A DNA stretch of 60,546 nucleotides from a virus (taxonomy: Duplodnaviria > Caudoviricetes): positions 1 to 60,546 of IMG/VR virus record IMGVR_UViG_3300028024_000009. One strand, 5' to 3'. The notes beneath the pieces were generated by a model. The model had not been told where the DNA came from. It worked only from the letters and a program-made list of their open reading frames with translations, and ran no database searches. The position numbers and the translations under genes are program-made. Of the stretch, positions 2,671 through 48,094 are shown piece by piece. Numbering within the stretch: position 1 is the first letter of the stretch; each line of letters opens with the position of its first letter.

Positions 2671-2904
2671 GTGAGAATATTCGAGATAGACAACCATTTC
2701 ATCGACCTCGAGTCGATTACGGCAATCACCCCTGTACAGGAGGCGAAGCAGGGGTGGGGGTGCTGGGGATTCGCCGTGCATTGCAAGCTGCACGAGCGGC
2801 CGATGTGGATCGGCGACAGCATCGAGACGGATCACTGGAGGACGAAGGAGCAGATTTGGGATATCCGTGCCACTCTGATCAACGCATGGAAGGAGGGTGC
2901 ATGA
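2671..2904 (+). CDS. Hypothetical protein
   Basis: GGGAG RBS before GTG 2671, coupled to the next ORF. Confidence 0.55.
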   Translation: MRIFEIDNHFIDLESITAITPVQEAKQGWGCWGFAVHCKLHERPMWIGDSIETDHWRTKEQIWDIRATLINAWKEGA

Positions 2905-3182
2905 TTCCCGAGAAGAAACCGTGCCCGTGTGGATACGTTTCACCGACGACCGGTAAAGGCTGCCCGCAGGTGATCCTGTCAGGATTCGGTAATCCGATGG
3001 ACGTCGAGACGGCTGACGAGATTATCGAGACATACAAGGACGCCGCACGGTTGAACTTTCTGCTTGCGAATCCGGGCGTATGCGCTACGCTCCAATTTCA
3101 GCTCGCACGCAAGCGGCGTGAGTGGATCGATTATCAGATGACGAAGCCGGGGAGGAAGAAACGTGCCAAAGAAACAGAGTAA
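2901..3182 (+). CDS. Hypothetical protein
   Basis: AGGAGG RBS and ATGA overlap. Confidence 0.6.
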   Translation: MIPEKKPCPCGYVSPTTGKGCPQVILSGFGNPMDVETADEIIETYKDAARLNFLLANPGVCATLQFQLARKRREWIDYQMTKPGRKKRAKETE

Positions 3183-3336
3183 GAATACGGTCACCGCCGT
3201 AATCTCGCAGATTCAGAACGACATCGACGATACGACCCGAGACCTCTCGGACGCCGAATATCTCGAGGTTCTCGAGGATATCGAGGGCTATATCAAATCA
3301 TGCATCGAAGCCAAGAAAGAGGAGATGGAGAAATGA
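3163..3336 (+). CDS. Small acidic hypothetical protein (57 aa; not in ORF track)
   Basis: GGAGG then GTG, reading MPKKQSKNTVTAVISQIQ...; its stop overlaps the next ATG. Confidence 0.55.
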   Translation: MPKKQSKNTVTAVISQIQNDIDDTTRDLSDAEYLEVLEDIEGYIKSCIEAKKEEMEK

Positions 3337-3575
3337 TTCCAGTAGTTGGTCAGTGGTACGAGGATCTGTCAACGAAGTTCAAGGTGACTTTCGTTGATCA
3401 CGACGACGGTCGGGTTGAGGTCGAATACCAGGACGGAAGCTCCGGCGAGATGGATATCGATGAATGGGATGAGGAGGATATCGCGCAGATCGAAGCCCCG
3501 CTCGACGATGAAGACGAGGACGCAGAGGACGAAGACGACGTAGAAGATGAGGACGAGGAGTACGACGATGTCTGA
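3333..3575 (+). CDS. DUF6763-like acidic protein
   Basis: 'PVVGQWY...FKV..VD.DDGRVEVEYQDG...EMD.DEW' pattern with an acidic tail. Confidence 0.6.
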   Translation: MIPVVGQWYEDLSTKFKVTFVDHDDGRVEVEYQDGSSGEMDIDEWDEEDIAQIEAPLDDEDEDAEDEDDVEDEDEEYDDV

Positions 3576-3686
3576 GTGGGCAGTCCAAAATCCGAATGGA
3601 TTCGGGTTTATCCTGTTTTGCGCCATTGCATCGGTTACGATCATCGGCGTGGCCTTTGCGATTGCCATCTCTGAGAGGAGAAGACA

Positions 3687-4682
3687 ATGATCCGCTTGCT
3701 CGACCACGGATTCGTTCGTCTCGTTTCCTACGTTCAGCCAGCGCCCGATTTCTCGGCCGTTGATAACCCCGAGTACGGAGGAAGTTCGGCTGACGTGATT
3801 CTCGATGCGCATAGCAAGTGGACGGGGGATCTGGAAATCATCCGCAACGCGCGCGTGTCGTACGATGCCGATTGGCGTAATGACGGAACGGTCCTGCACG
3901 AGCCGCATTGCCCGTCGATCCTGCCGCCGATGTCGAACGGAGAGCCTCGGCCCTGCAATTGCGTTCCACGTACGGTCTCGGACTCGCGCCTGATGGAGTA
4001 TCTCTACTCCCATATCCATTCGACGCCGTTCGAGGCGATGATCTTCACGTTCGAGGTGCAGGCACCGATCTTCGTCTTCCGGCAGTGGCATCGGCATCGC
4101 ACGTGGTCATATAACGAGGTGAGCGCGCGTTATACGGAGCTGCCGAGCACGTACTACGTTCCGGCCCCGGAGGATATCGGAACGCAAGACCCGAAAAACA
4201 AGCAAGGGCGTTCCTTCGTCCAAACCATGTCACAGGGCTATGCCGAACGCGAGCGGCAGCGGCTGATGGTTGAGGGGTTCGATATCGAAGCTTCCCACGC
4301 ACATCGGACGTACCAGGATCGACTGGGAGAGGGCGTGCCGCGCGAGATCGCACGGATCAACCTACCCCTGTCAACGTACTCCCGGATGTTCGGTACGGTA
4401 GATTTGTGGAACCTCTTCGGCTTCCTATCCCTGAGGGACCACCCGCATGCGCAGTACGAGATTCGAGTCTACGCGCAGGCGCTGAAAGAGCTGATCCGTC
4501 CAATCGTGCCGGAGGCGATGCGCGCGTACGACCGGTTCAAACGGACGATGATCGACACTGAGCATGAGTTTGTTGCGGATGTCAGGAACCTCGCACAGAC
4601 GATCACGGTCAACGGAAAAGAGTATATCGTGCAGGTCACGCCGGTGCCGTCTGACGACATGCTGATGCCAAAGGTGCGATAA
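3687..4682 (+). CDS. thyX: FAD-dependent thymidylate synthase
   Basis: 'ARVSY', 'H.TPFE', 'PIFVFRQWHRHRTWSYNEVSARY', 'REIAR..LP' and 'HAQYEIR.YA'. Confidence 0.96.
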   Translation: MIRLLDHGFVRLVSYVQPAPDFSAVDNPEYGGSSADVILDAHSKWTGDLEIIRNARVSYDADWRNDGTVLHEPHCPSILPPMSNGEPRPCNCVPRTVSDSRLMEYLYSHIHSTPFEAMIFTFEVQAPIFVFRQWHRHRTWSYNEVSARYTELPSTYYVPAPEDIGTQDPKNKQGRSFVQTMSQGYAERERQRLMVEGFDIEASHAHRTYQDRLGEGVPREIARINLPLSTYSRMFGTVDLWNLFGFLSLRDHPHAQYEIRVYAQALKELIRPIVPEAMRAYDRFKRTMIDTEHEFVADVRNLAQTITVNGKEYIVQVTPVPSDDMLMPKVR

Positions 4683-4906
4683 TGCGCAAGAAATTTACGA
4701 ATCAGGAGAAAAAGGAAGCGTGGAATCGCGGGGGATCGCTGCGACCCCGTACCCTGCTTCTGGAGGAGAAGATCAAGGAGCACGCGGCACGTACGGTTGA
4801 TAAGAGTGATGCCAGCAATCATCCTTTCATCGAGGGTTGGCATCGTAGAGTTTTGAAGGATTACGAGAAATGGAGAGAAAAGAATGGCAAAGGGTCGAAC
4901 TCCTGA
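4682..4906 (+). CDS. Hypothetical basic protein
   Basis: Coupled to the thyX stop (TAATG). Confidence 0.55.
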   Translation: MRKKFTNQEKKEAWNRGGSLRPRTLLLEEKIKEHAARTVDKSDASNHPFIEGWHRRVLKDYEKWREKNGKGSNS

Positions 4907-5093
4907 CTTCGAGATGAAGGCGATGAATAAAGGAACCGAACGCGCGCACCGCGTCGGCGCCGCATGGATGAATCGGGACAAGGAGGGGAACATCACTAGT
5001 ATCTCAATCAACCTCGACGAGTTCGTCGTTCTGGAAGGTAAGAACAACGATCTCGCTCTTACACTATTTCCTTGGGAGGAGAAGAAAAAATGA
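4884..5093 (+). CDS. Small DUF736-like (putative ssDNA-binding) protein
   Basis: 'RVGAAW....G...SISINLD....L.LF' pattern. Confidence 0.5.
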   Translation: MAKGRTPDFEMKAMNKGTERAHRVGAAWMNRDKEGNITSISINLDEFVVLEGKNNDLALTLFPWEEKKK

Positions 5094-5503
5094 CTAGATA
5101 TGACGACGAGCCGAACGTCGGCGTTTGGATGGTTGTCGGGATTGTGATCCTCGCTCTCGTGATCGGACTTGCGATGGTCGGATGTCCTACGTACAACGTC
5201 TACACGGCCCAGAAAGCGGGTGAGGCTGAGCTGGCTCAAGCGACGCAGAATCGGCAGATCGCGATCAACGAGGCGCAAGCGAAGATGGAGTCTGCCAAGC
5301 TCCTTGCCCAGGCGGAGGTCGAACGGGCCAAGGGAGTCGCCGAGGCGAACAAGATCATCGCGGAGGGTCTCAAAGGCCATGACGAATACCTTCGATATCT
5401 CTGGATCACGGAAGTTGCCGCTGTCGGAAAAGACGGCAAGACTGTTGTTTATGTTCCGACGGAAGCGAATCTACCAATCCTCGAAGCGGGAGCGCGCAAA
5501 TGA
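5090..5503 (+). CDS. Membrane-anchored SPFH/band-7-like coiled-coil protein
   Basis: TM helix, then 'P.YNVY', 'AEVERAKGVAEANKII', 'YLRYLWI' and 'VYVPTEANLPILEA'. Confidence 0.75.
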   Translation: MTRYDDEPNVGVWMVVGIVILALVIGLAMVGCPTYNVYTAQKAGEAELAQATQNRQIAINEAQAKMESAKLLAQAEVERAKGVAEANKIIAEGLKGHDEYLRYLWITEVAAVGKDGKTVVYVPTEANLPILEAGARK

Positions 5504-5883
5504 CCGGCCAAGAGCTGTACGAGCGATACCAGCAGCATTGCCACGGACGGATTGACTGCGTGGTCGAAGACTGGGACGATCTCTCCGAAGCAGACCAATC
5601 GACGTGGAATGCGCTCGGGTCCGAAGTTCATTGGATGGTACCAGAGTAGCCTTCGAAGGCAATTCTGTCGTATGCTATCCGGCATGAACCTCCCCGATTT
5701 TGAAAGCCCCGAGTGGAATGCGGAACGCGAGCGGCTGCAAGAGCAGATGGCGGCCGCTGTGGTCGCTCTCGTTACGCACATGAGCGGCCCCGGGCCCCTC
5801 TGCGGCAAATTTGATCTCCAGGACCCGTCCGGGCGTCCTATCTCCCTGACAATCGATGCGGGCGCACGCCCGCGGCCAAACTA

Positions 5884-6243
5884 ATGCGCTCGTTAGCTGA
5901 TAGCCGCAAGGCGTGGGAAGGTAGCTCGGTTCACACCACATTCACCGCGAACTGTGCATGCGGAGCGGAAGGCTATATCCAGGGAATTGATATCGAATTC
6001 GAGTCTCTGCGCCGCAAACTGAGTGTGGGGGGCTGGCGCTTTAACGATGCCGGCGACCGCTGCATCTGCCCGAAGTGCGGTCCGAAGAAATATCCGGAGC
6101 TGTACGTTCCTAACTCTCACTACAAAGCTAAACCAGATGGCAGTGTCAGTAATTCTCCGCGTGTCGTGCGACGCGTCGGTCAATCGGGAAGGAAGCAAGC
6201 TGAAAAAAAAGTGCTCGCGCCACGACGAATTCGAAAGCTCTAA
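5884..6243 (+). CDS. Zn-binding hypothetical protein
   Basis: CxC...GW...CxCPKC. A similar GW...CPDC ORF overlaps at ~6138-6373. Confidence 0.5.
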   Translation: MRSLADSRKAWEGSSVHTTFTANCACGAEGYIQGIDIEFESLRRKLSVGGWRFNDAGDRCICPKCGPKKYPELYVPNSHYKAKPDGSVSNSPRVVRRVGQSGRKQAEKKVLAPRRIRKL

Positions 6244-6473
6244 TATCTTCGCTTCGAAGAAGATGGCGACCGACGCGGGCTGGTGCTTTACGATGCGCTA
6301 CACGAAAGACATTATTCTCTGCCCCGACTGCGGGCCAGAAATCATGCCACACTACTACGCGAGGCGAACATGACCTGCTCAGATTGGCTTGAAAAGAACT
6401 TCTGGTGGTTCTGTCCAATGGTCGGGATAACTCTCGCTGGAATCATAATTTGGTTCCTCGGGTGATCTTCGGG

Positions 6474-6503
6474 TTGCAGCCGCTGATCGTTCTGTTTTAA
6501 GCT
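6474..6503 (+). promoter_or_regulatory. Candidate sigma70 promoter for the ncRNA region
   Basis: TTGCAG-N18-TAAGCT immediately after the last small ORF. Confidence 0.4.
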
Positions 6504-6509
6504 ATCGTT

Positions 6510-7150
6510 CGTCGCTCGGGTTGTTCGTTCGATCCCGTGCGGTGGGGTTTACGAAGCTACTGCTCCTTCACGGCTTCTCGCAAGAGAAGTCCCCGGTTAC
6601 GGGGATAAGGAGAAACGCTCCCCGGAACCCCCGGGTCGCAGCCGCTCCCTGCTAAAGTCCGTGTTTCCCCACAGTTACCTGGACTCCCTGGTATAGCGGC
6701 TACGGTCCTTCGCGAAGATTTCCGGATGGCTCTCCTCGGGTCGTCGTGCATTAGCCAGCGGACTCTCGGATGCCGGAAATCTTCGCAAAGGATCGAGCCC
6801 CGGTGCGCACACATCGAGGTTCGTTCGAAAAGGAATGCGGTCGGCGTGGTCAGACACGCAGCAGCCAAGCCCGTATGCTAGGTTTACGCGGGACAGCTTC
6901 GTCGGGGAGAGCCTAGAAAGTTCCCGTCGCTGGTGAAAGAAGTCTTAGTAACGCGTCCAAGAGGCTCCCGGTTTACCGGTACAGCTCTATCCGGGACTAC
7001 CAAGCGAATCCAGCACCGCAGACGATGAATAGGGGAAGATCGTTAAGAGCTTCGGCTCGCGACTGGTGAGCTCAAAGTCACAGACAACGAGCTAACTTAC
7101 CAGCCAGCTAAGATCCTTAGCGGGATCGTCGCTGAAGAGCTTCCCCGGCG
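6510..7150 (+). ncRNA. Candidate large structured ncRNA (~640 nt)
   Basis: No credible ORF. Tetraloop hairpins CTTCTC-GCAA-GAGAAG and GAGC-TTCG-GCTC. Long stem 6712-6726/6773-6786. Long-range pairs 6538-6544/7014-7020 and 7032-7038/7140-7146. Confidence 0.7.
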
Positions 7151-7152
7151 CC

Positions 7153-7223
7153 GACGAGATTAGCTCAGTGGTAGAGTGCGGGACTAGGTCCCGAGGTCGA
7201 GGGTTCGAATCCCTCATCTCGTC
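7153..7223 (+). tRNA. tRNA-like gene with shortened (5-nt) anticodon loop; identity undetermined
   Basis: 8-bp acceptor GACGAGAT/ATCTCGTC, D arm GCTC-AGTGGTA-GAGT, T arm GAGGG-TTCGAAT-CCCTC, anticodon arm CGGGA-CTAGG-TCCCG. No encoded CCA. Confidence 0.75.
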
Positions 7224-7361
7224 CTTTTCAGGTTGCGCCCGAGCCGAGGCACAATGAGTATCGGCCCGCATTTCTGGGAGCTTGCGTAATCCGTACCCAG
7301 CGCATCCGAGTCTGCGACAGTGCGTTCGGCCGTGTCATCCCTGCGGAATCAGGGATGGGTC

Positions 7362-7506
7362 CTTTTCTCGAGGGCCCTGGGAATGCTGCCGTGACTACAT
7401 TCTAGGTTATGACGTCACGGCTAATCTTCGTCGCAGGGTCCTCGAGAAAAGCAGGTGCAAGAGCATGATCCAGACGAAGAGGATCGCCGGTTCGAATCCG
7501 GCCTGT
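7362..7506 (+). ncRNA. Pseudoknotted RNA with tRNA-like T arm
   Basis: 18-bp stem 7362-7379/7434-7451, loop GACGAAGA complementary to TCTTCGTC, and GCCGG-TTCGAAT-CCGGC. Confidence 0.55.
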
Positions 7507-7671
7507 GGAGGCGGGGGTGCGCAATCGTACACGCACAGTGTCTTTTCGAAGGCGCAGTGATAAAAATCGAGGGCAGGTAGCTACTCTCCGCTTCATGCAC
7601 GCATGGGGGACTACGGAGAAACAGTACCTCGGTGGAATCCAATTGGGCAACTCCTCACTGCGCCCCCGAAA

Positions 7672-7765
7672 GGGGTTGACGTTTGCCCGAACGTTCTGCT
7701 ATTGAGGGTTCTGTTTACTCAGCTCGGAGCCTTCGAAGTACGGCAAGCGTCAACTCCCCTTTTTT
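7672..7765 (+). terminator. Long GC stem followed by T-tract (terminator-like or 3' domain of a small RNA)
   Basis: GGGGTTGACGTTTGCC pairs with GGCAAGCGTCAACTCC, followed by TTTTTT. The ~55-nt loop is atypical for a simple terminator. Confidence 0.4.
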
Positions 7766-7835
7766 CTCAACCAACCGCTCGACCTATTGCCCCGTTTAAG
7801 CTACGCTTATTCGGGGTTTTTCTTTGGAGCAGAAA

Positions 7836-8189
7836 ATGTCGAAATCTAATCGAGGGTTTGCGTCGATGAGCGCGGAACGGCAACGTGAGATTGCGAGCAT
7901 GGGCGGGAAAGCCGTACCGGCGGAGCAGCGTTCGTTTTCGCGGAACCGGGGGCTCGCAGCGGCGGCGGGCGCAAAGGGGGGTAAAAGCGTGCCCGCAAAC
8001 GAACGGAGCTTCTTTAAGGACCGCGATTTAGCTCGGGCGGCGGGGTCGTCCGGGGGTAAAGCCGTACCGGCCGATAAACGCTCCTTCGCGCAAAACGCGA
8101 GCTTGGCAGCAGAGGCTGGTCGGAAAGGTGGTTTGGCCCCGAGAACACCCACTGAGGAGAAGACCGATGCTAAGCCAAGCAACGAGTGA
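7836..8189 (+). CDS. KGG-repeat general stress protein (YciG/GsiB-like)
   Basis: 'RGFASMS.ERQREIASMGGK' plus three 'RSF...LA..AG..GG' repeats. Confidence 0.9.
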   Translation: MSKSNRGFASMSAERQREIASMGGKAVPAEQRSFSRNRGLAAAAGAKGGKSVPANERSFFKDRDLARAAGSSGGKAVPADKRSFAQNASLAAEAGRKGGLAPRTPTEEKTDAKPSNE

Positions 8190-8358
8190 GGAACAGGCAT
8201 GGGTTTTGGTCTATGGAATCTCACTGGCGATCGGCATGCTCGGGAGGAAAGGGGCCGCTCCGGGATTCGAAGAGAGGTTCGCGGACAAAATCGACTCACA
8301 AGCTCGGGCCGTTGCGGACCAAGCTGTCACCACCCTGAAAGAGAAGGGAGTCCTGTGA
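8167..8358 (+). CDS. Hypothetical protein
   Basis: GAGGAG RBS, coupled to the next gene. Confidence 0.55.
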   Translation: MLSQATSEEQAWVLVYGISLAIGMLGRKGAAPGFEERFADKIDSQARAVADQAVTTLKEKGVL

Positions 8359-8855
8359 ATAAGCAGAAACAGCTCGAAAAACTTCTTCTGGGGTGTCCAA
8401 CGTGTGCGTACGAGGAAGCGGATGGGGTACTCTATCGCCACTGCAACAAATGCCAGTTCGACATCTCAAAGCTTGCGTACGAGATCGTGATCGAGAACAA
8501 AACAACCCTCGGTGCTTCCGGTTTCCGCAATGGATTGACCGATGCTGAGGAGGAGATGCTTCAGATTGCGGAGGAGGAGTGCGCCGAGCTGATTCAGGCC
8601 ATCTCGAAGATTCGCCGACACGGAATCGATCGGGAGGAAGTAGGGCAGAAGGGAGAGGAACCTCTCGAGGAGGGCCCCCGGATTCAAAATCTCCACGAAG
8701 AGTGCGGCGACGTGATCGCGTGTATCGCGATCCTCTCCCACAACAAACTCATCGAGATTGGTCGGGTCAACAAAGTCGCACGACAGAAACTCGATCGCCT
8801 CAAGGTTCCCGGCAACACGCGGGTTCATTTCATGGTTCCTCACATGATTCCGTAG
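8355..8855 (+). CDS. MazG-like nucleotide pyrophosphohydrolase with N-terminal Zn finger
   Basis: 'EEECAELIQAISK' and 'EECGDV' (ExxE...ExxD), plus CPTC/CNKC. Confidence 0.75.
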   Translation: MNKQKQLEKLLLGCPTCAYEEADGVLYRHCNKCQFDISKLAYEIVIENKTTLGASGFRNGLTDAEEEMLQIAEEECAELIQAISKIRRHGIDREEVGQKGEEPLEEGPRIQNLHEECGDVIACIAILSHNKLIEIGRVNKVARQKLDRLKVPGNTRVHFMVPHMIP

Positions 8856-9083
8856 GAGGTGATGCGTTCAATGAGTCCGGAAGATCAAGAAGACCTCGAC
8901 CGGAGGAGTAGGAAACCATAAACGCGGGGGCTCGCATCCGCGCAAACACGAGAGGAGGTGATGTCCAGTGATTACGCCCTATGAGCCGGGCAAAATGCCC
9001 CCAGGGATAGTCCGGGGGTAGCAGCATCCGGCGAACAACACTCGACATCTATGGGGGAGACGTGGTAGCATGCCTCCCCCATA

Positions 9084-10589
9084 ATGTCCACCGCTCTAGC
9101 CAAGCTTGATCTCTCCGACCCCGGATCGCTGCGGAAGCAGCTAGCCGCATTCAATACGGAGGACCTAATCCTCCTGCGCTGGAAGATGCTATGGAAAGCC
9201 CAAGCCCGGCGCAAACAAATTCCCCCCACCCTGTTACCGAGCGGCAAGCCGTGGAAAGTCTTCGGCGTGCGCTCCGGTCGCGGCTTCGGCAAAACTCTGA
9301 TGGGAGCGAATTGGCTCGGGCAGGCTGCCGCAAGCGATCCCGGGAGCTACAATTTCGTTATCGCTCCGACGCACGACGACGTACGATATACGTGCTTCGA
9401 AGGTCCTACGGGGCTCTTTTCGGTTATCCCCCCGCAGCTCATCGCCGATTGCAATTTGACGCTCCCGTCGATAACCCTGACGAACAGGTCGATCATCAGA
9501 GGATTCGCGGCCGTCGCTCCCGAGCGCTTGCGCGGTCCGCAGAGCAATCGCATCTGGGCGGATGAGGTTGCGTCTTGGCGCGAGCCTAATAAGTCCTGGG
9601 ACAACCTGATGTTCGGGTTGCGCCTCGGTCCGCATCCGCAGATCTTCTGGACTGGCACGCCGAAGCCAACCCCGTTCGTCACCAAGCTGTGCAAATATCT
9701 CACCGACATTCTGGTGTTGGGATCCACATACGAGAATCGGGAAAATCTGGCCGACTCGTTCTACGAGAACGTTGCAAAGTACGAAGGGACGAAGATCGGT
9801 CGTCAGGAACTCTATGGGGAGCTGATCGATCCCGAAGAGTCTGGATTCGTCAAGCGTTCCGATTGGAGGCTTTGGCCGGCGGGCAAGCCGCTGCCTCGCT
9901 TTAAGTTCATCCTCCTCTCCCTGGACACCGCTTTTACTGAGAAAACGTTCGATAAAAAGGAACAGGAGAACGATCCGACTGCCTGTTCCGTTTGGGGTAT
10001 GTTCGAATACGAGCGCAAAGAGCACGTGATGCTGCTCGACTGCTGGGAAGAGCACCTCGGGTTCCCCGAGCTGATCCGCCGTACCAAGCGGGAGATGAAG
10101 AAAACGTACGGAGATGCCGACGAACCCCTGATCAAGGTCGTTCTCCCCGGACAGATTACTCCACACCACGGACGCAAGCCTGATTTGATCTTGATCGAGG
10201 ATAAAGGCAGCGGTATTTCTCTGCGCCAATCTCTGGCAATGGAAAATATATTCGCTGAGCCATATAATCCGGGCCGCATGGATAAGCTCTCCCGGCTCCA
10301 TGCGGTATCTCCCCTCTTCCCCCACAAGCGGGTATGGGCAGTGGAGAGCCGGAACAATCGGGGGAACCCGGTTTCGTGGGCCGATCCGATCATCACTCAG
10401 GTTTGCTCGTATGTCGGCGAGGGTTCTCTCGAGCACGATGACCTTCTCGACACCGCGACACAGGCATTGAAGTTTTTGATGGATAAGTTCCGGATGACGT
10501 TTACGAACAAGGTCGATCCCGACGAGAAGACTAAACAGGCGGCCGATAAGCTCCGACAGAAAAAGGCAGGTAACCCCTATGATCAATGA
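9084..10589 (+). CDS. terL: Terminase large subunit
   Basis: Walker A 'GRGFGKT', 'LRGPQ', Walker B 'WADE', 'TGTP', and nuclease motifs 'SLDTA' and 'HDDLLD'. Confidence 0.95.
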   Translation: MSTALAKLDLSDPGSLRKQLAAFNTEDLILLRWKMLWKAQARRKQIPPTLLPSGKPWKVFGVRSGRGFGKTLMGANWLGQAAASDPGSYNFVIAPTHDDVRYTCFEGPTGLFSVIPPQLIADCNLTLPSITLTNRSIIRGFAAVAPERLRGPQSNRIWADEVASWREPNKSWDNLMFGLRLGPHPQIFWTGTPKPTPFVTKLCKYLTDILVLGSTYENRENLADSFYENVAKYEGTKIGRQELYGELIDPEESGFVKRSDWRLWPAGKPLPRFKFILLSLDTAFTEKTFDKKEQENDPTACSVWGMFEYERKEHVMLLDCWEEHLGFPELIRRTKREMKKTYGDADEPLIKVVLPGQITPHHGRKPDLILIEDKGSGISLRQSLAMENIFAEPYNPGRMDKLSRLHAVSPLFPHKRVWAVESRNNRGNPVSWADPIITQVCSYVGEGSLEHDDLLDTATQALKFLMDKFRMTFTNKVDPDEKTKQAADKLRQKKAGNPYDQ

Positions 10590-10839
10590 GCAAGGTACGT
10601 ATATCAGTCGACCCGTGGAGATCGAGGCTTTCCACTGGAATGGTGAGCCTCCTGTCGAGTGGCCGGCTTGGGCTCGAGACAGTCTCTCGATCCGCTACGA
10701 GATTTCGTGTCTTCAGGTTGATACGGAGGAAGGAACGATGCGAGCCAATCGCGGGGACTGGATTATCAAAGGAACAATCGGAGAAGTCTATCCCTGCAAA
10801 GACCAAGTCTTTCGGAAGAAGTATGACAAAGTCGACTAG
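10579..10839 (+). CDS. Conserved small phage protein (PGDYG-like)
   Basis: 'T.EG.M.A..GDWIIKG..GEVYPCK..VF.K.Y'. Confidence 0.75.
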   Translation: MINEQGTYISRPVEIEAFHWNGEPPVEWPAWARDSLSIRYEISCLQVDTEEGTMRANRGDWIIKGTIGEVYPCKDQVFRKKYDKVD

Positions 10840-11008
10840 CGCTCGCGCGTATCGGCGCCTGGTGAAAAAGGGTATGATCGATGAGATCAAGCGACGCACT
10901 GGCCGAGATGCGTCGAGTTCGTCTGAGGTTCGGAAAATGATCCAGGAGCGAATCTTGGAGAAGGAACGTAAAGAGGCGCTTCCGGATGTGGATATTCCCC
11001 GCCAATGA
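10823..11008 (+). CDS. Hypothetical basic protein
   Basis: Fills the gap in the operon, with coupled stops and starts. Confidence 0.5.
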   Translation: MTKSTSARAYRRLVKKGMIDEIKRRTGRDASSSSEVRKMIQERILEKERKEALPDVDIPRQ

Positions 11009-44626: not shown

Positions 44627-45572
44627 CACGAACCTCGAAGTGCGTCTTGCGAACGAAGTCGGCGTCGAGGCCGCGCAGCTCCGCATGACAGAGTTTATAG
44701 AATTCGCAATCCCACGAGCAATTCTTCGTCAGGTTGCGTGCTTTGAGATTTAATCCGTACTCGTCGATCAGGATGGCCGTCTCGCGAGCGTCATCGACTA
44801 CGGATTTTACCATCTCCGGGGAGGGTGTTGGCAATCTGATTCGCTGAAAAAAATCGGTCGTCCCGCGCCTTTTCAGATCAACCAGAAACCCCTGATAAGG
44901 CTTCGGATCCAGCCGGAGCCGGGAGATCTCCGCGAGGTAAGTATGATAATCCGTAGCGATACTCTTGGCCTGGGAGAGTCCTCCATTCTTAAGCTGATCG
45001 GGGATCGTCGGAGGCTTGCTGCGGATATAATCCCATAACACACCGTCGAGGTCGGCTTTGGGCTTGCGCTGATTCTCGGCCCAGTAGTATAGCACGAGCT
45101 GAATATCGGAGAATCGATCCTTTTCCTCTGGGATGGATTTGCACGTCTTGTGATCCATCAGCCAACGCCGGCCCTCGGGATCGATTGCGATCTTATCGAT
45201 GATATAAATCAGCTCGATTTTCTTCTTGACGAGCACGACTCGGAACTCCTCCTCGCTGCGCTCGTATTTCAGCTTATCATCCTTGTAGGTCCGCTTGTAC
45301 GCTTCGAAGATACGCTCGATCTCCGAAATGAAATCGTCGCCATACTCCTCACGCTGCTCCCTGAATAGCTGTTTGTATTGCTTGGCGTATTTGACTGTAA
45401 CGTTGAAGGGATCCTTGTGATCCACCATCGCGTCGATCATCTCGTGGATGATCGTTCCTTTCAGCAGCGGGGCCGGCTTCGCTTTGACCGCGAGGCGCTG
45501 ATTGTAGCGGTAATCGTGCTTCTTGAAGCACCGGCGGAACGTCTTGATCCTTGAATGTGATACACTGATCAT
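44598..45572 (-). CDS. PD-(D/E)XK exonuclease (RecB/Cas4-like)
   Basis: 'SHS.I..F.RC', 'G...H', 'ID', 'DHKT', 'QL..Y' and C-terminal 'C.W.C.F..LC'. Confidence 0.88.
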   Translation of the reverse strand: MISVSHSRIKTFRRCFKKHDYRYNQRLAVKAKPAPLLKGTIIHEMIDAMVDHKDPFNVTVKYAKQYKQLFREQREEYGDDFISEIERIFEAYKRTYKDDKLKYERSEEEFRVVLVKKKIELIYIIDKIAIDPEGRRWLMDHKTCKSIPEEKDRFSDIQLVLYYWAENQRKPKADLDGVLWDYIRSKPPTIPDQLKNGGLSQAKSIATDYHTYLAEISRLRLDPKPYQGFLVDLKRRGTTDFFQRIRLPTPSPEMVKSVVDDARETAILIDEYGLNLKARNLTKNCSWDCEFYKLCHAELRGLDADFVRKTHFEVRDENRKEKVE

Positions 45573-48094
45573 AATGTTATTGCCTTTCCGGCACCCCAGG
45601 GGCCGATTTCGAGTTCCGCGACGAGCGGGATGGATAAATCGATTTTGAAGTCGTCGAAGAGAGCCGGTCTCTCCATGATACGCTTGACACGCCGGAGGGA
45701 AGGCAGCATTGAAGGCCCTTTGCGGACGATCATCAAGATAGCATCGTGGTGCTCACCAACAACCTTCAGGTCGGTATGCGGGACAGTCTCGTGGATTTCT
45801 ACCATCGCCATAGCCTTGATGTCCCCAATAACCCCCTGGACCGGAGAGTTTATTGCCTGCCGCTCGCACTCGCTCCGTAGCATACGATCCGAGGAGGCGA
45901 TCCCAGGCAGCCGACGTACCCGACCGCTCAAGCTCCTCACGAAACCATCCAAAGCTACAAGCTTTTTCTGCTTCTCGTGCCACGGGTGGAGCCCTCGATA
46001 GAGCGCGAAATACGCGCGCTTGAATTCGGCTGCTTCTTCGAACGTCGGCTCGAACCCGTACTTGGTCTTGCACGTTTGGATGAACTTGTTTTCGAACATC
46101 CCGTAGAGGAATCCGAAGTTGATAGCTTTGGCCCGCTTGCGCGCTTCCTTCCAGATCTTGTCGATTTCGATGCAGGCATCGTGTCCAGCCCTTCGAAGAA
46201 CTTCAATCGCTTCCGCGAGTCGAATACCAGCTCGTCCAGCGAGACGTCCTGCAGTGACAAGAGCCGGTTCGAGGTATGTGTCGGATGCTCCCGACTCGAT
46301 GGTGTGGAGGAGAGTGGACCAGTGGACATCAGGTCCGCCAGGAGAGAAGCAGCGACGTAGCTCGAGATCTCCAGACAACTCTGCAGCGATCCGAAGCTCT
46401 GCCTGAGAGAAATCCCCCTGGAGGAATTCCCATCCGGGCGGGGCAATCGCAAGATTGCGGATCTTGCCGTCTCGAGGGACTGAATGCAATCTCGAAGAGT
46501 ATCGACCCGTAACTGTGCCGTGGATTTTGTACGAGATGTAGAGCTTGTCATCGACCATTAACTCCTCGAAGCCCTCGATGTAGGTCGAGTGGAACTTCGC
46601 GCATTCTCGATATTTCAGCAACGCGTCGACGACCGGATGTTTCCCTTTGAGGGCGAGCAAGCTCTCCTCCGAGGTCGAGGGGGCTCCTTTCGCGGTAAGC
46701 ATCGCGGGCTTTAACCCCGCTTCCTTGAATAACACCTTAGCGACTTGCGGAGGCGAGTTCCAATTCGTTGTGCGGTGGATCCCCCGCCGGTCTTTGCGCA
46801 GATCGCGAACAGCGTTATTCAGGGATCGCTCGAGGTCGTCTCGCTCAGCGGCAATTTCGATTCCGGTTTGTTTGAACTTTGGGACATCGATTGTAAGGCC
46901 ATGCTCTTCAATTCCCAGTAGCTCGGCTGTTCCTCCAAGTGCTCGAGAGGCACGCATCTGCAGCTTGTAGAAAAGCTTTCGAAGATCGGGTTCCTTCGCA
47001 AACATCTCGTGGAAAACATGTTTGAGTCTCAGGGTGTATACGGCGTCCCGTCCGGTATAGTCGAAGAAGCGCGGTAGATCTGTGGGCCACTGCTTCTCGC
47101 GGAGGGGAATATCATACTTGGGGGCTTCGAGGTAGTAGTGGCTGAGATACTCCAAGTCCTGGGGCGTATTCTCGTTAAGCACGTGGTGTGCCAACATGGT
47201 GTCGAACCGAAGGTCAAATCGCACTCCGAGTTTGGCCCAAAGAAAATGGTTGTCGAATTTTCCATTGTGTGCGATCCCCGATTTACCTTTGGCGAGGAGC
47301 ATCAGCAGCTTCCCCATCCGCCGCTGAGCGTCCGGTCGAAGCAGATATGGACTCTTCTGCATCTGCATGGGAATGATCCATGCCTTATCGTCGAGTCCGA
47401 TGTTGATAGAGGTAATAGTCGAGCTAGGTTTGAACCAATGCAGAGACGACGTCTCGAGGTCGAACGAGAACTCCTCTACCGCTAGGAACTCGTCGACGAA
47501 ACGCCGAATTGTCTTCGCAGTAACAAGCTCCCATTCGACCTCGACACGCTTCTCGCGCCCCTCGAGCGCATCTTTGAGCCTCCGAAGAGCTTTACGGAAG
47601 TCCGGCAGCTTGCTTGGGTCCCGGCCGACGTACGCGGGGTGGAAAGCCGGGACACCCTTAAAGGCTAGGGGCTGCCAGCGCTTGGGGGCCTCGAGCACTT
47701 GCCCGTTGACCTGCGTGATTTTCGCATTCCCTAAGACTTCTTTCGTCGCAGGCTTGCCGAGGGTGAGTACAAACCGAGGCTTAATCGTCGCAAGCTCCTC
47801 CTCCAGATACGGCCGGCATGCCTTAATTTCTTCCGGAGTAGGATCCCGATTATCAGGAGGACGACACTTGACAATGTTCGTAATATAGACATCGTCGAGG
47901 TCCGCGTTCTTGAGTTCTCCTCGTAGCAGCTGACCACTACGGCCCATGAAAGGTCGTCCAGTTTTCGCTTCAGCCTGTCCCGGCGCTTCTCCGATTGCAA
48001 CCACGCTCGCAGTAGTGGGCCCGTCACCCCATACGCAGACATTGACAGCTCCTTTCCACAACCCGCAGTTGCGGCAATCCTTATTACGGGGCAT
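45569..48094 (-). CDS. polA: Family A DNA polymerase with N-terminal uracil-DNA-glycosylase (family 4) domain and 3'-5' exonuclease
   Basis: UDG 'C..C.L', 'GEAPG', 'KCRPP.NR.P', 'HPAY'; exo 'FDLET', 'HNGKFD'; pol 'DFSQAELR', 'R..AKAINFG.LYG', 'HDA'. Confidence 0.95.
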   Translation of the reverse strand: MPRNKDCRNCGLWKGAVNVCVWGDGPTTASVVAIGEAPGQAEAKTGRPFMGRSGQLLRGELKNADLDDVYITNIVKCRPPDNRDPTPEEIKACRPYLEEELATIKPRFVLTLGKPATKEVLGNAKITQVNGQVLEAPKRWQPLAFKGVPAFHPAYVGRDPSKLPDFRKALRRLKDALEGREKRVEVEWELVTAKTIRRFVDEFLAVEEFSFDLETSSLHWFKPSSTITSINIGLDDKAWIIPMQMQKSPYLLRPDAQRRMGKLLMLLAKGKSGIAHNGKFDNHFLWAKLGVRFDLRFDTMLAHHVLNENTPQDLEYLSHYYLEAPKYDIPLREKQWPTDLPRFFDYTGRDAVYTLRLKHVFHEMFAKEPDLRKLFYKLQMRASRALGGTAELLGIEEHGLTIDVPKFKQTGIEIAAERDDLERSLNNAVRDLRKDRRGIHRTTNWNSPPQVAKVLFKEAGLKPAMLTAKGAPSTSEESLLALKGKHPVVDALLKYRECAKFHSTYIEGFEELMVDDKLYISYKIHGTVTGRYSSRLHSVPRDGKIRNLAIAPPGWEFLQGDFSQAELRIAAELSGDLELRRCFSPGGPDVHWSTLLHTIESGASDTYLEPALVTAGRLAGRAGIRLAEAIEVLRRAGHDACIEIDKIWKEARKRAKAINFGFLYGMFENKFIQTCKTKYGFEPTFEEAAEFKRAYFALYRGLHPWHEKQKKLVALDGFVRSLSGRVRRLPGIASSDRMLRSECERQAINSPVQGVIGDIKAMAMVEIHETVPHTDLKVVGEHHDAILMIVRKGPSMLPSLRRVKRIMERPALFDDFKIDLSIPLVAELEIGPWGAGKAITL

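Follow-up and report, generated by a model that had tools for sequence, protein, structure and literature searches.

A Hairpin-Rich Non-coding Region with tRNA-like Elements Upstream of the Terminase Gene of a Soil Phage

Genomic Context and Coding Content of the Gap

The window analyzed here is the whole soil-phage record IMGVR_UViG_3300028024_000009 (60,546 bp, CheckV completeness 98). A listing of sequencing runs places the phage in soil metagenomes, with no RNA dataset among the runs listed for it, and four DNA runs contain the same phage at 100% identity on short contigs, with no divergent copy. A contig of run X1 matches positions 4000-11000 without difference, and base 4000 of the window corresponds to base 5597 of that contig, which therefore extends about 1.6 kb past the first base of the record; the record ends are thus probably not physical genome ends. 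The plus strand carries tailed-phage genes, namely small early genes, ThyX, a phrog_11227 protein, a KGG-repeat protein, a MazG-like protein, TerL, and portal. The replication module lies on the minus strand (PolA fused to UDG, a PD-(D/E)XK nuclease, an SNF2 helicase, and dCMP deaminase) and is adjoined by a primase-polymerase ORF on the plus strand. The uracil-DNA glycosylase domain is fused at the N terminus of the DNA polymerase A gene (45569-48094, minus strand), and ThyX, a second thymidylate-synthase-like gene, and dCMP deaminase are all present in this phage.

A gene-free gap of 1.37 kb (6466-7835) separates the small early genes from the KGG-MazG-terminase block, all of which are on the plus strand. 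It starts after the stop codon of a 31-codon membrane-peptide ORF (6370-6465, plus strand), which overlaps its predecessor by ATGA, and ends at the KGG-repeat gene (GGAG at 7826-7829, ATG at 7836); TerL follows 1.25 kb downstream. A preliminary description, made from the letters alone, had singled out positions 6510-7150 as the longest ORF-poor stretch of the genome. Its non-coding character was borne out, as the genome's longest run of windows in the lowest 8% of coding scores spans 6201-6901 and resumes at 7101-7301, but the true gap is 6466-7835, of which 6510-7150 is only the first half. The GC content of the gap is close to that of the rest of the genome. Each of the three stop codons occurs in each of the six frames of 6440-7830, and stop-codon recoding was rejected on these grounds. 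The longest ORF of the stretch (minus strand, 103 aa) lacks relatives in a set of 5.8 billion proteins, in viral contigs, and in phage records, and protein relatives of two plus-strand frames were likewise not found. A conserved ORF, which the preliminary description had named as evidence against its proposal, was therefore rejected, and translated self-comparison revealed no gene remains in the gap. The plausible promoter said to precede the stretch could not be recovered: a promoter scan returned zero sigma-70-like sites in 6200-8000, and no repeated promoter motif was found. Iterons or other significant direct repeats were also not detected in the gap by repeat search.

Hairpins and Long-Range Pairings Upstream of the tRNA-like Gene

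The first part of the gap (6466-6572, plus strand) holds CGGGTTGCAGCCGCT at 6470-6484, which returns at 6632-6646 as a 15-nt direct repeat with 14/15 positions identical (CGGGT[T/C]GCAGCCGCT). Both copies are able to pair with AGCGGCT at 6695-6701 and could thus form alternative, mutually exclusive helices. A 5' cluster of about seven back-to-back hairpins follows on the plus strand (6573-6830), including a GCAA-capped 7-bp stem with its loop at 6580 and, at 6640-6701, an AGCCGCT/AGCGGCT helix around AGTCC/GGACT. The most prominent member of the cluster is a long near-perfect hairpin (6703-6795) with 23-nt arms (6703-6725/6773-6795) that are 91% complementary and separated by 47 nt; a repeat search ranked it first among the inverted repeats of the 60.5-kb genome. 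This hairpin had been described as a 14-bp stem with one bulge. The stem is present, but it has no bulge, as GCGAAGATTTCCGG at 6712-6725 pairs perfectly with CCGGAAATCTTCGC at 6773-6786 and the pairing extends into the 23-nt arms. An exact-pattern scan for the long hairpin gave zero matches. We infer that 6703-6795 is a candidate RNase III-type duplex, or alternatively a protein or DNA site.

The pairings named in the preliminary description (AGCCGCT/AGCGGCT, AGTCC/GGACT, CTGGTGAG/CTTACCAG, 6538-6544/7014-7020, and 7032-7038/7140-7146) were all located where it had put them. The two long-range pairs, the first of which is TGCGGTG/CACCGCA, are present both in the sequence and in the centroid fold. 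The GNRA/UUCG-capped hairpins it reported are likewise there, in the form of one GCAA and one UUCG loop on two of the 16 hairpins predicted in 6510-7150; at least two such loops occur in 4/91 background windows.

Downstream of the hairpin cluster, the middle stretch (6831-7030, plus strand) has no excess local structure and contributes only to predicted long-range pairings, for example 6538-6544/7014-7020. It is followed on the plus strand by a predicted four-way-junction domain (7028-7153), closed by GGGGAAG/CTTCCCC and with one UUCG-capped arm. The minimum free energy (MFE) structure of this domain (-48.5) accounts for 0.17 of the ensemble, with a z-score of -3.05 and 1/200 shuffles folding as well. 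As the domain ends directly 5' of the tRNA-like gene, it would form the leader of that gene. A single-sequence covariance model of 7028-7153, searched against 59 related loci, matched the window itself alone.

Fold Strength Compared with Chance

The preliminary description proposed a single ornate RNA of about 640 nt, to be compared with shuffled controls. On the plus strand, 6510-7150 beats most shuffles, with z-scores of -3.54 (20 shuffles) and -2.67 (80 shuffles, 1/80 as good); the corresponding minus-strand values are -2.42 and -1.69. Measured against a native background of 188 windows of 641 nt from the same genome, corrected for GC content, the stretch lies only 1.38 sd below the mean (-1.38 sd) and ranks 18/188. 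Among the plus-strand 641-nt windows of the genome, the two that fold best begin at 7361 and 7041. When the region is split, 6466-6830 gives z-scores of -4.16 on the plus and -4.77 on the minus strand (0/100 shuffles as good), 6831-7030 gives +0.27 and +1.01, and 7031-7153 gives -2.93 and -2.01. The same pattern is seen in 120-nt windows: 6701-6820 reaches -3.99, windows starting at 6731-6881 and at 6941 range from +0.5 to +1.0, and those at 6911 and 6971 score -0.38 and -0.15. The MFE structure of 6510-7150 as a whole has a frequency of approximately zero in its ensemble. The split z-scores indicate real structured modules, but no uniformly ornate 640-nt fold. The claim of one such RNA is therefore not supported as stated, since the excess structure is confined to 6466-6830 and 7031-7153, on either side of an unstructured middle of 200 nt. 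The minus strand of the hairpin cluster folds equally well, so the cluster could also be a DNA palindrome.

Hairpins and Terminator-like Stems Downstream of the tRNA-like Gene

The genome folds most strongly downstream of the tRNA-like gene, outside 6510-7150. Region 7225-7823 has z-scores of -6.41 on the plus and -5.19 on the minus strand, with MFE values of -257.4 and -236.0, respectively. It contains a terminator-like 9-bp hairpin (7335-7358, plus strand) followed by the U-rich tail GTCCTTTTCT, which was listed by a terminator scan. Next to it lies a second long, near-perfect hairpin (7362-7451, plus strand; 90 nt), in which 21-nt arms (90%) enclose an inner hairpin with 13-nt arms; this is the second-best inverted repeat of the genome, and the 120-nt window 7331-7450 reaches a plus-strand z-score of -8.0. 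Further downstream on the plus strand are a branched hairpin domain (7544-7671) closed by 17-nt arms (88%), a long stem followed by TTTTTT (7672-7765; stem 7672-7757, 16-nt arms with two G-U pairs on the plus strand), and an interrupted CCCCG...CGGGG stem followed by TTTTT (7790-7821; stem 7790-7816), which was read by eye and abuts the ribosome-binding site of the KGG gene. The terminator scan missed the last two stems, of which 7672-7757 has a large inner loop and 7790-7816 is interrupted. The GC-rich stem followed by a run of U residues that characterizes intrinsic terminators is present at 7335-7358, at 7672-7757 with T6, and at 7790-7816 with T5. Window 7661-7780 folds with a z-score of -3.87 on the plus strand versus +0.50 on the minus strand, i.e., it is terminator-like on the plus strand only. 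A separate hairpin with 15-nt arms (TATGGGGGAGACGTG/CATGCCTCCCCCATA) is found outside the gap at 9050-9083, its end abutting the TerL start codon.

The tRNA-like Gene Has a Shortened Anticodon Arm

The tRNA-like gene reported beside the stretch occupies 7154-7224 on the plus strand (71 nt) and is the sole tRNA gene of the phage. It retains intact acceptor, D, and T arms and lacks an encoded CCA. The tRNA model (RF00005) matches 7154-7223 with 60.8 bits (E 1e-10), well above its 29-bit threshold, so the preliminary description was right about the likeness, but the anticodon loop has only 5 nt. The anticodon arm is 2 nt short, with a CGGGA/UCCCG stem and the loop CUAGG; an alignment with bacterial tRNAs places a 2-nt gap within the anticodon loop against 5/5 aligned sequences, and the RF00005 alignment has three letters in the anticodon region where five are expected. 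An exact-pattern scan for this odd arm gave zero matches. A decoding tRNA needs a 7-nt anticodon loop with U33, and 7154-7224 has neither feature. ARAGORN labels the gene Leu-UAG, a call that requires a 4-bp stem closed by a G.A pair together with C33. Bacterial tRNA-Leu is a class II tRNA with a long variable arm; the variable region of 7154-7224 is 5 nt long, and this feature of tRNA-Leu is missing. As the Leu-UAG call depends on the G.A-closed stem and C33, and the long variable arm is absent, 7154-7224 is, judged from its sequence, unlikely to decode. Across 20 long genes, the frequency of CUA codons is 6.5 per 1000. Altered anticodon loops in phage tRNAs have been proposed to evade tRNA-targeting defences (PMC10264068), and the 5-nt loop found here goes further than the altered-loop idea as set out there.

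A second tRNA-like element, a tRNA 3' fragment, lies at 7481-7512 on the plus strand and consists of a perfect T arm (GCCGG-TTCGAAT-CCGGC) and the 3' strand of the acceptor stem. ARAGORN extends it to a poor 84-nt cloverleaf (7429-7512) at the 80% threshold alone. A profile built from 43 tRNAs found two sites only in the genome, 7154-7224 (E 1.3e-9) and 7481-7512 (E 0.0015), and no decayed tRNAs in 6466-7153. As to the element at 7481-7512: Over 27 nt, it shares 96% identity with an orphan fragment of a Gemmatimonadota genome (L086 557-583, minus strand). The latter fragment is CCA-ended and copies the 3' end of the same genome's tRNA-Asn. Two of the three TerL relatives found on genome contigs are likewise in Gemmatimonadales metagenome-assembled genomes, a weak hint at the host of the phage.

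Fragments of tRNA 3' ends are typical att cores, and with such a fragment present we considered whether the gap acts at the DNA level, as a packaging (pac/cos) region, a replication origin, or an attP-like site on the fragment. Its position 1.25 kb upstream of TerL and the long palindromes that fold equally on both strands would suit such an element, as would the finding that the TerL relative L002 has a gap of about 980 nt, poor in ORFs and with repeated GAGGGCCGAG motifs. The gap of our phage, however, has no iterons or other significant direct repeats, its GC content is that of the rest of the genome, and its terminator-like stems with G-U pairs are specific to the plus strand. The record lacks both tyrosine and serine recombinases (PF00589 and PF00239, each without a match at E<=1), and neither an integrase nor phage-like homology lies beside the matching fragment in the Gemmatimonadota genome G040. 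The attP assignment was therefore rejected, and a DNA-level element of any of these kinds is very improbable.

Comparison with Known RNA Families

Searches of Rfam gave no family for the stretch, either at the gathering score or at E<=10. The preliminary description had been unable to match the stretch to GOLLD or ROOL by eye, and this agrees with the model searches: GOLLD (RF02032; 416-position model, 150-bit threshold), searched by name, and ROOL (RF03087; 574 positions, 99.1 bits) have no match even at E<=10. A by-name search for ROOL missed the control genomes too and carries little weight; the cmscan negatives for ROOL are unaffected. Two further candidates were rejected. A Y RNA-like YrlB (RF02565) look-alike at 7371-7442 scores 23.1 bits, far below its gathering score of 97, and the phage has no TROVE domain at E<=1. 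A tmRNA was not called at ARAGORN defaults; a permuted call with the tag APRNPRVAAAPC appears at the 80% threshold only, and there is no Rfam match at E<=10.

In its layout the gap resembles some giant phage RNAs. In GOLLD, a tRNA can occupy the linker between the 5' and 3' domains, and ROOL, of about 580 nt, occurs in phages and prophages, frequently close to tRNA islands (bioRxiv 10.1101/2024.12.08.627333). As GOLLD is portrayed there, it shares with the gap a phage origin, a large size, the lack of ORFs, and a position beside or around tRNA genes; here, the tRNA-like gene 7154-7224 lies in a phage record between two structured halves. The gap differs in having no match to the GOLLD model, no conserved 3' domain, and only patchy structure. 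The location near a tRNA in a phage also recalls ROOL in that account, but the model match is absent.

A single giant RNA of a new class, which might multimerize, could accordingly be envisaged, formed either by 6510-7150 alone or by the full 1.3 kb, whose linker would hold the tRNA look-alike. The location beside a tRNA, the lack of ORFs, a plus-strand fold that beats shuffles, the long-range closures in the centroid, and the GNRA and UUCG caps are all compatible with this idea. It is nevertheless improbable: no Rfam model matches at E<=10, GOLLD and ROOL included; 6510-7150 ranks only 18/188 with its middle 200 nt unstructured; the frequency of its MFE structure in the ensemble is near zero; and no family emerged, the single-sequence model of the junction domain having found nothing in the 59 related loci. 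The more specific version, in which the whole gap is one new-class RNA of about 1.3 kb with a 5' domain (6573-7153) joined by the tRNA look-alike to a stronger 3' domain (7225-7765), is quite improbable. This arrangement would be that of some GOLLD RNAs as they have been described, although neither sequence nor model matches relate the gap to GOLLD or ROOL. Such an RNA would be the third tRNA-linked giant phage RNA beside GOLLD and ROOL, the functions of which are described as unknown in the same source (bioRxiv 10.1101/2024.12.08.627333).

Homologue Searches

The gap was compared by blastn with 50,697 phage records, where only the tRNA matched, and with plasmids, where nothing did. Related loci were collected by a TerL search with the single protein, which yielded 16 viral-contig, 34 metagenome-contig, and 3 genome-contig loci, and by a search with a TerL alignment, from which the best 80 of at least 587 loci encoding a relative were taken. 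Neither blastn, nhmmer, nor tblastx found a match to the gap in any of these TerL-anchored loci, and 12 loci around relatives of the phrog_11227 gene also gave nothing. The MazG-like gene retrieved no locus, either as a single protein or as an alignment query. In the whole records of five relatives, the tRNA-like pieces alone matched the gap, and among 401 Gemmatimonadota genomes the matches were confined to the tRNA and the T-arm fragment. Closer TerL proteins (P0002-P0016, 74-85% identical) are known as proteins from Logan assemblies, two of them also with the MazG-like gene (relatives P0122 and P0124, on contigs of 4,279 and 66,190 nt).

Among the best 80 viral-contig relatives (of at least 587), TerL is up to 65% identical, and the common matches in the 6 kb upstream of it are TerL and portal only (1e-4, validly framed queries). 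In five of the 80, tRNA or tRNA-like genes precede TerL, at 1.3-3.3 kb in L091, L100, L123, and L153 and at about 5.4 kb in L129. In all five, the ORFs around these genes (at least 60 aa) overlap or are closely spaced, and no large gap is present.

The missing homologues bear on a further explanation, according to which the gap is the wreck of an older tRNA cluster and/or of small genes, its hairpins are leftovers or ordinary terminators, and the tRNA look-alike is a pseudogene. Decay of this kind would account for the defects in both tRNA-like elements, for the featureless 6831-7030, for the lack of any homologue of the gap in phage records, plasmids, TerL and neighbor loci, and Gemmatimonadota genomes, and for gene content upstream of TerL (6 kb) that, TerL and portal excepted, is not shared with the 80 relatives compared. 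On the other hand, 1.4 kb of junk is rarely kept in phage genomes, tRNA profiles detect no tRNA remains in 6466-7153, and translated self-comparison detects no gene remains. The tRNA-like gene still has flawless acceptor, D, and T arms, and the two best inverted repeats of the genome, together with a junction occupying 0.17 of its ensemble, are not products of decay. We consider wholesale decay unlikely.

A Modular tRNA-Region Remnant or Leader as a Tentative Explanation

The hairpin-rich, orphan non-coding region itself is real. The explanation that we tentatively prefer, while holding it at somewhat under even chances, is that the 640-nt stretch is the upstream half of a transcribed, modular, non-coding tRNA-region remnant or leader spanning 6466-7835. 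This reading draws on the non-coding nature of the region and the lack of ORF relatives, on the uneven fold strength (z-scores of -4.2, +0.27, and -2.9 for the three parts, rank 18/188 for the whole stretch), on the location of the strongest fold downstream and of the genome's two best inverted repeats within the gap, and on the combination of a defective tRNA with a tRNA 3' fragment. Transcription of the plus strand is suggested by the lower plus-strand MFE of 7225-7823 (-257.4 versus -236.0) and by the strand preference of the terminator-like stem (z -3.87 versus +0.50).

In the proposed mechanism, the gap would be transcribed on the plus strand, either from an unrecognized promoter or because transcription of the early genes reads through into it. 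The tRNA-like elements may have been retained as cutting signals for RNase P and RNase Z rather than as decoders, and the 21- to 23-bp duplexes may serve as RNase III-type cutting or stabilizing sites; given both kinds of signal, the precursor would be cut into several small stable RNAs. The terminators would limit read-through into the packaging genes, and part of the gap is possibly plain decay of an older tRNA cluster. We infer the cutting by RNase P, RNase Z, and RNase III from shape only.

Elements of this scheme have counterparts elsewhere. The mascRNA at the 3' end of MALAT1 and the acceptor/T-arm minihelices that are substrates of RNase P are tRNA-like processing signals, and a non-decoding cloverleaf marks RNase P/Z cuts there as it may do here, although these examples are eukaryotic or in vitro. 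In lambda (tR'/Q) and HK022 (put RNA), structured leaders and intrinsic terminators precede packaging or structural genes. The gap likewise places structured RNA and terminators directly upstream of packaging genes, but it is far longer than those leaders, and neither an antiterminator gene nor a put-like match was identified. The closest precedent is the tRNA region of phage T4, where eight tRNAs and the species I and II RNAs all derive from a primary transcript of about 1.75 kb (PMC2330249). As portrayed in that report, the T4 region is a non-coding phage region that is cut into tRNAs and small stable RNAs of unknown role, and it lends support to the modular reading by its likeness to the gap. 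T4, however, has eight working tRNAs in that region, whereas the gap has one probably non-decoding look-alike and one fragment and bears no sequence relation to it.

Several points count against the modular remnant or leader. No promoter site was found, and it would be unusual for a size-constrained phage to keep 1.37 kb for processing signals alone. None of the five tRNA-carrying relatives (5/5) has such a gap, and the predicted long-range closures and well-defined junction would fit a larger folded RNA equally well. If the modular reading is true, the gap would be another phage tRNA region with additional small RNAs, and its cloverleaf, lacking a functional anticodon loop, would suggest that phages use tRNA shapes as cutting signals or decoys.

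Minor Observations on the TerL Relatives

Unusual tRNA-like genes also occur in the relatives. L123 has one (3927-4000) with an 8-nt anticodon loop holding UCA, which could therefore be a UGA or frameshift suppressor, and those of L091 (990-1080) and L129 (480-572) measure 91-93 nt and carry additional sequence within the anticodon region. The gap of L002, whose TerL is 53% identical, lies at 2682-3661, about 2.3 kb upstream of TerL; its many repeats of the GAGGGCCGAG type are iteron-like, and its sequence is unrelated to 6466-7835. In L126, L127, and L132, the tblastn matches to TerL are split and lie 1.1 kb apart, and the TerL relatives P0052 and P0110 (784-853 aa) have LAGLIDADG or intein-splicing Pfam domains. 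Together, the split matches and these domains suggest inteins or introns in some of the terminase genes.
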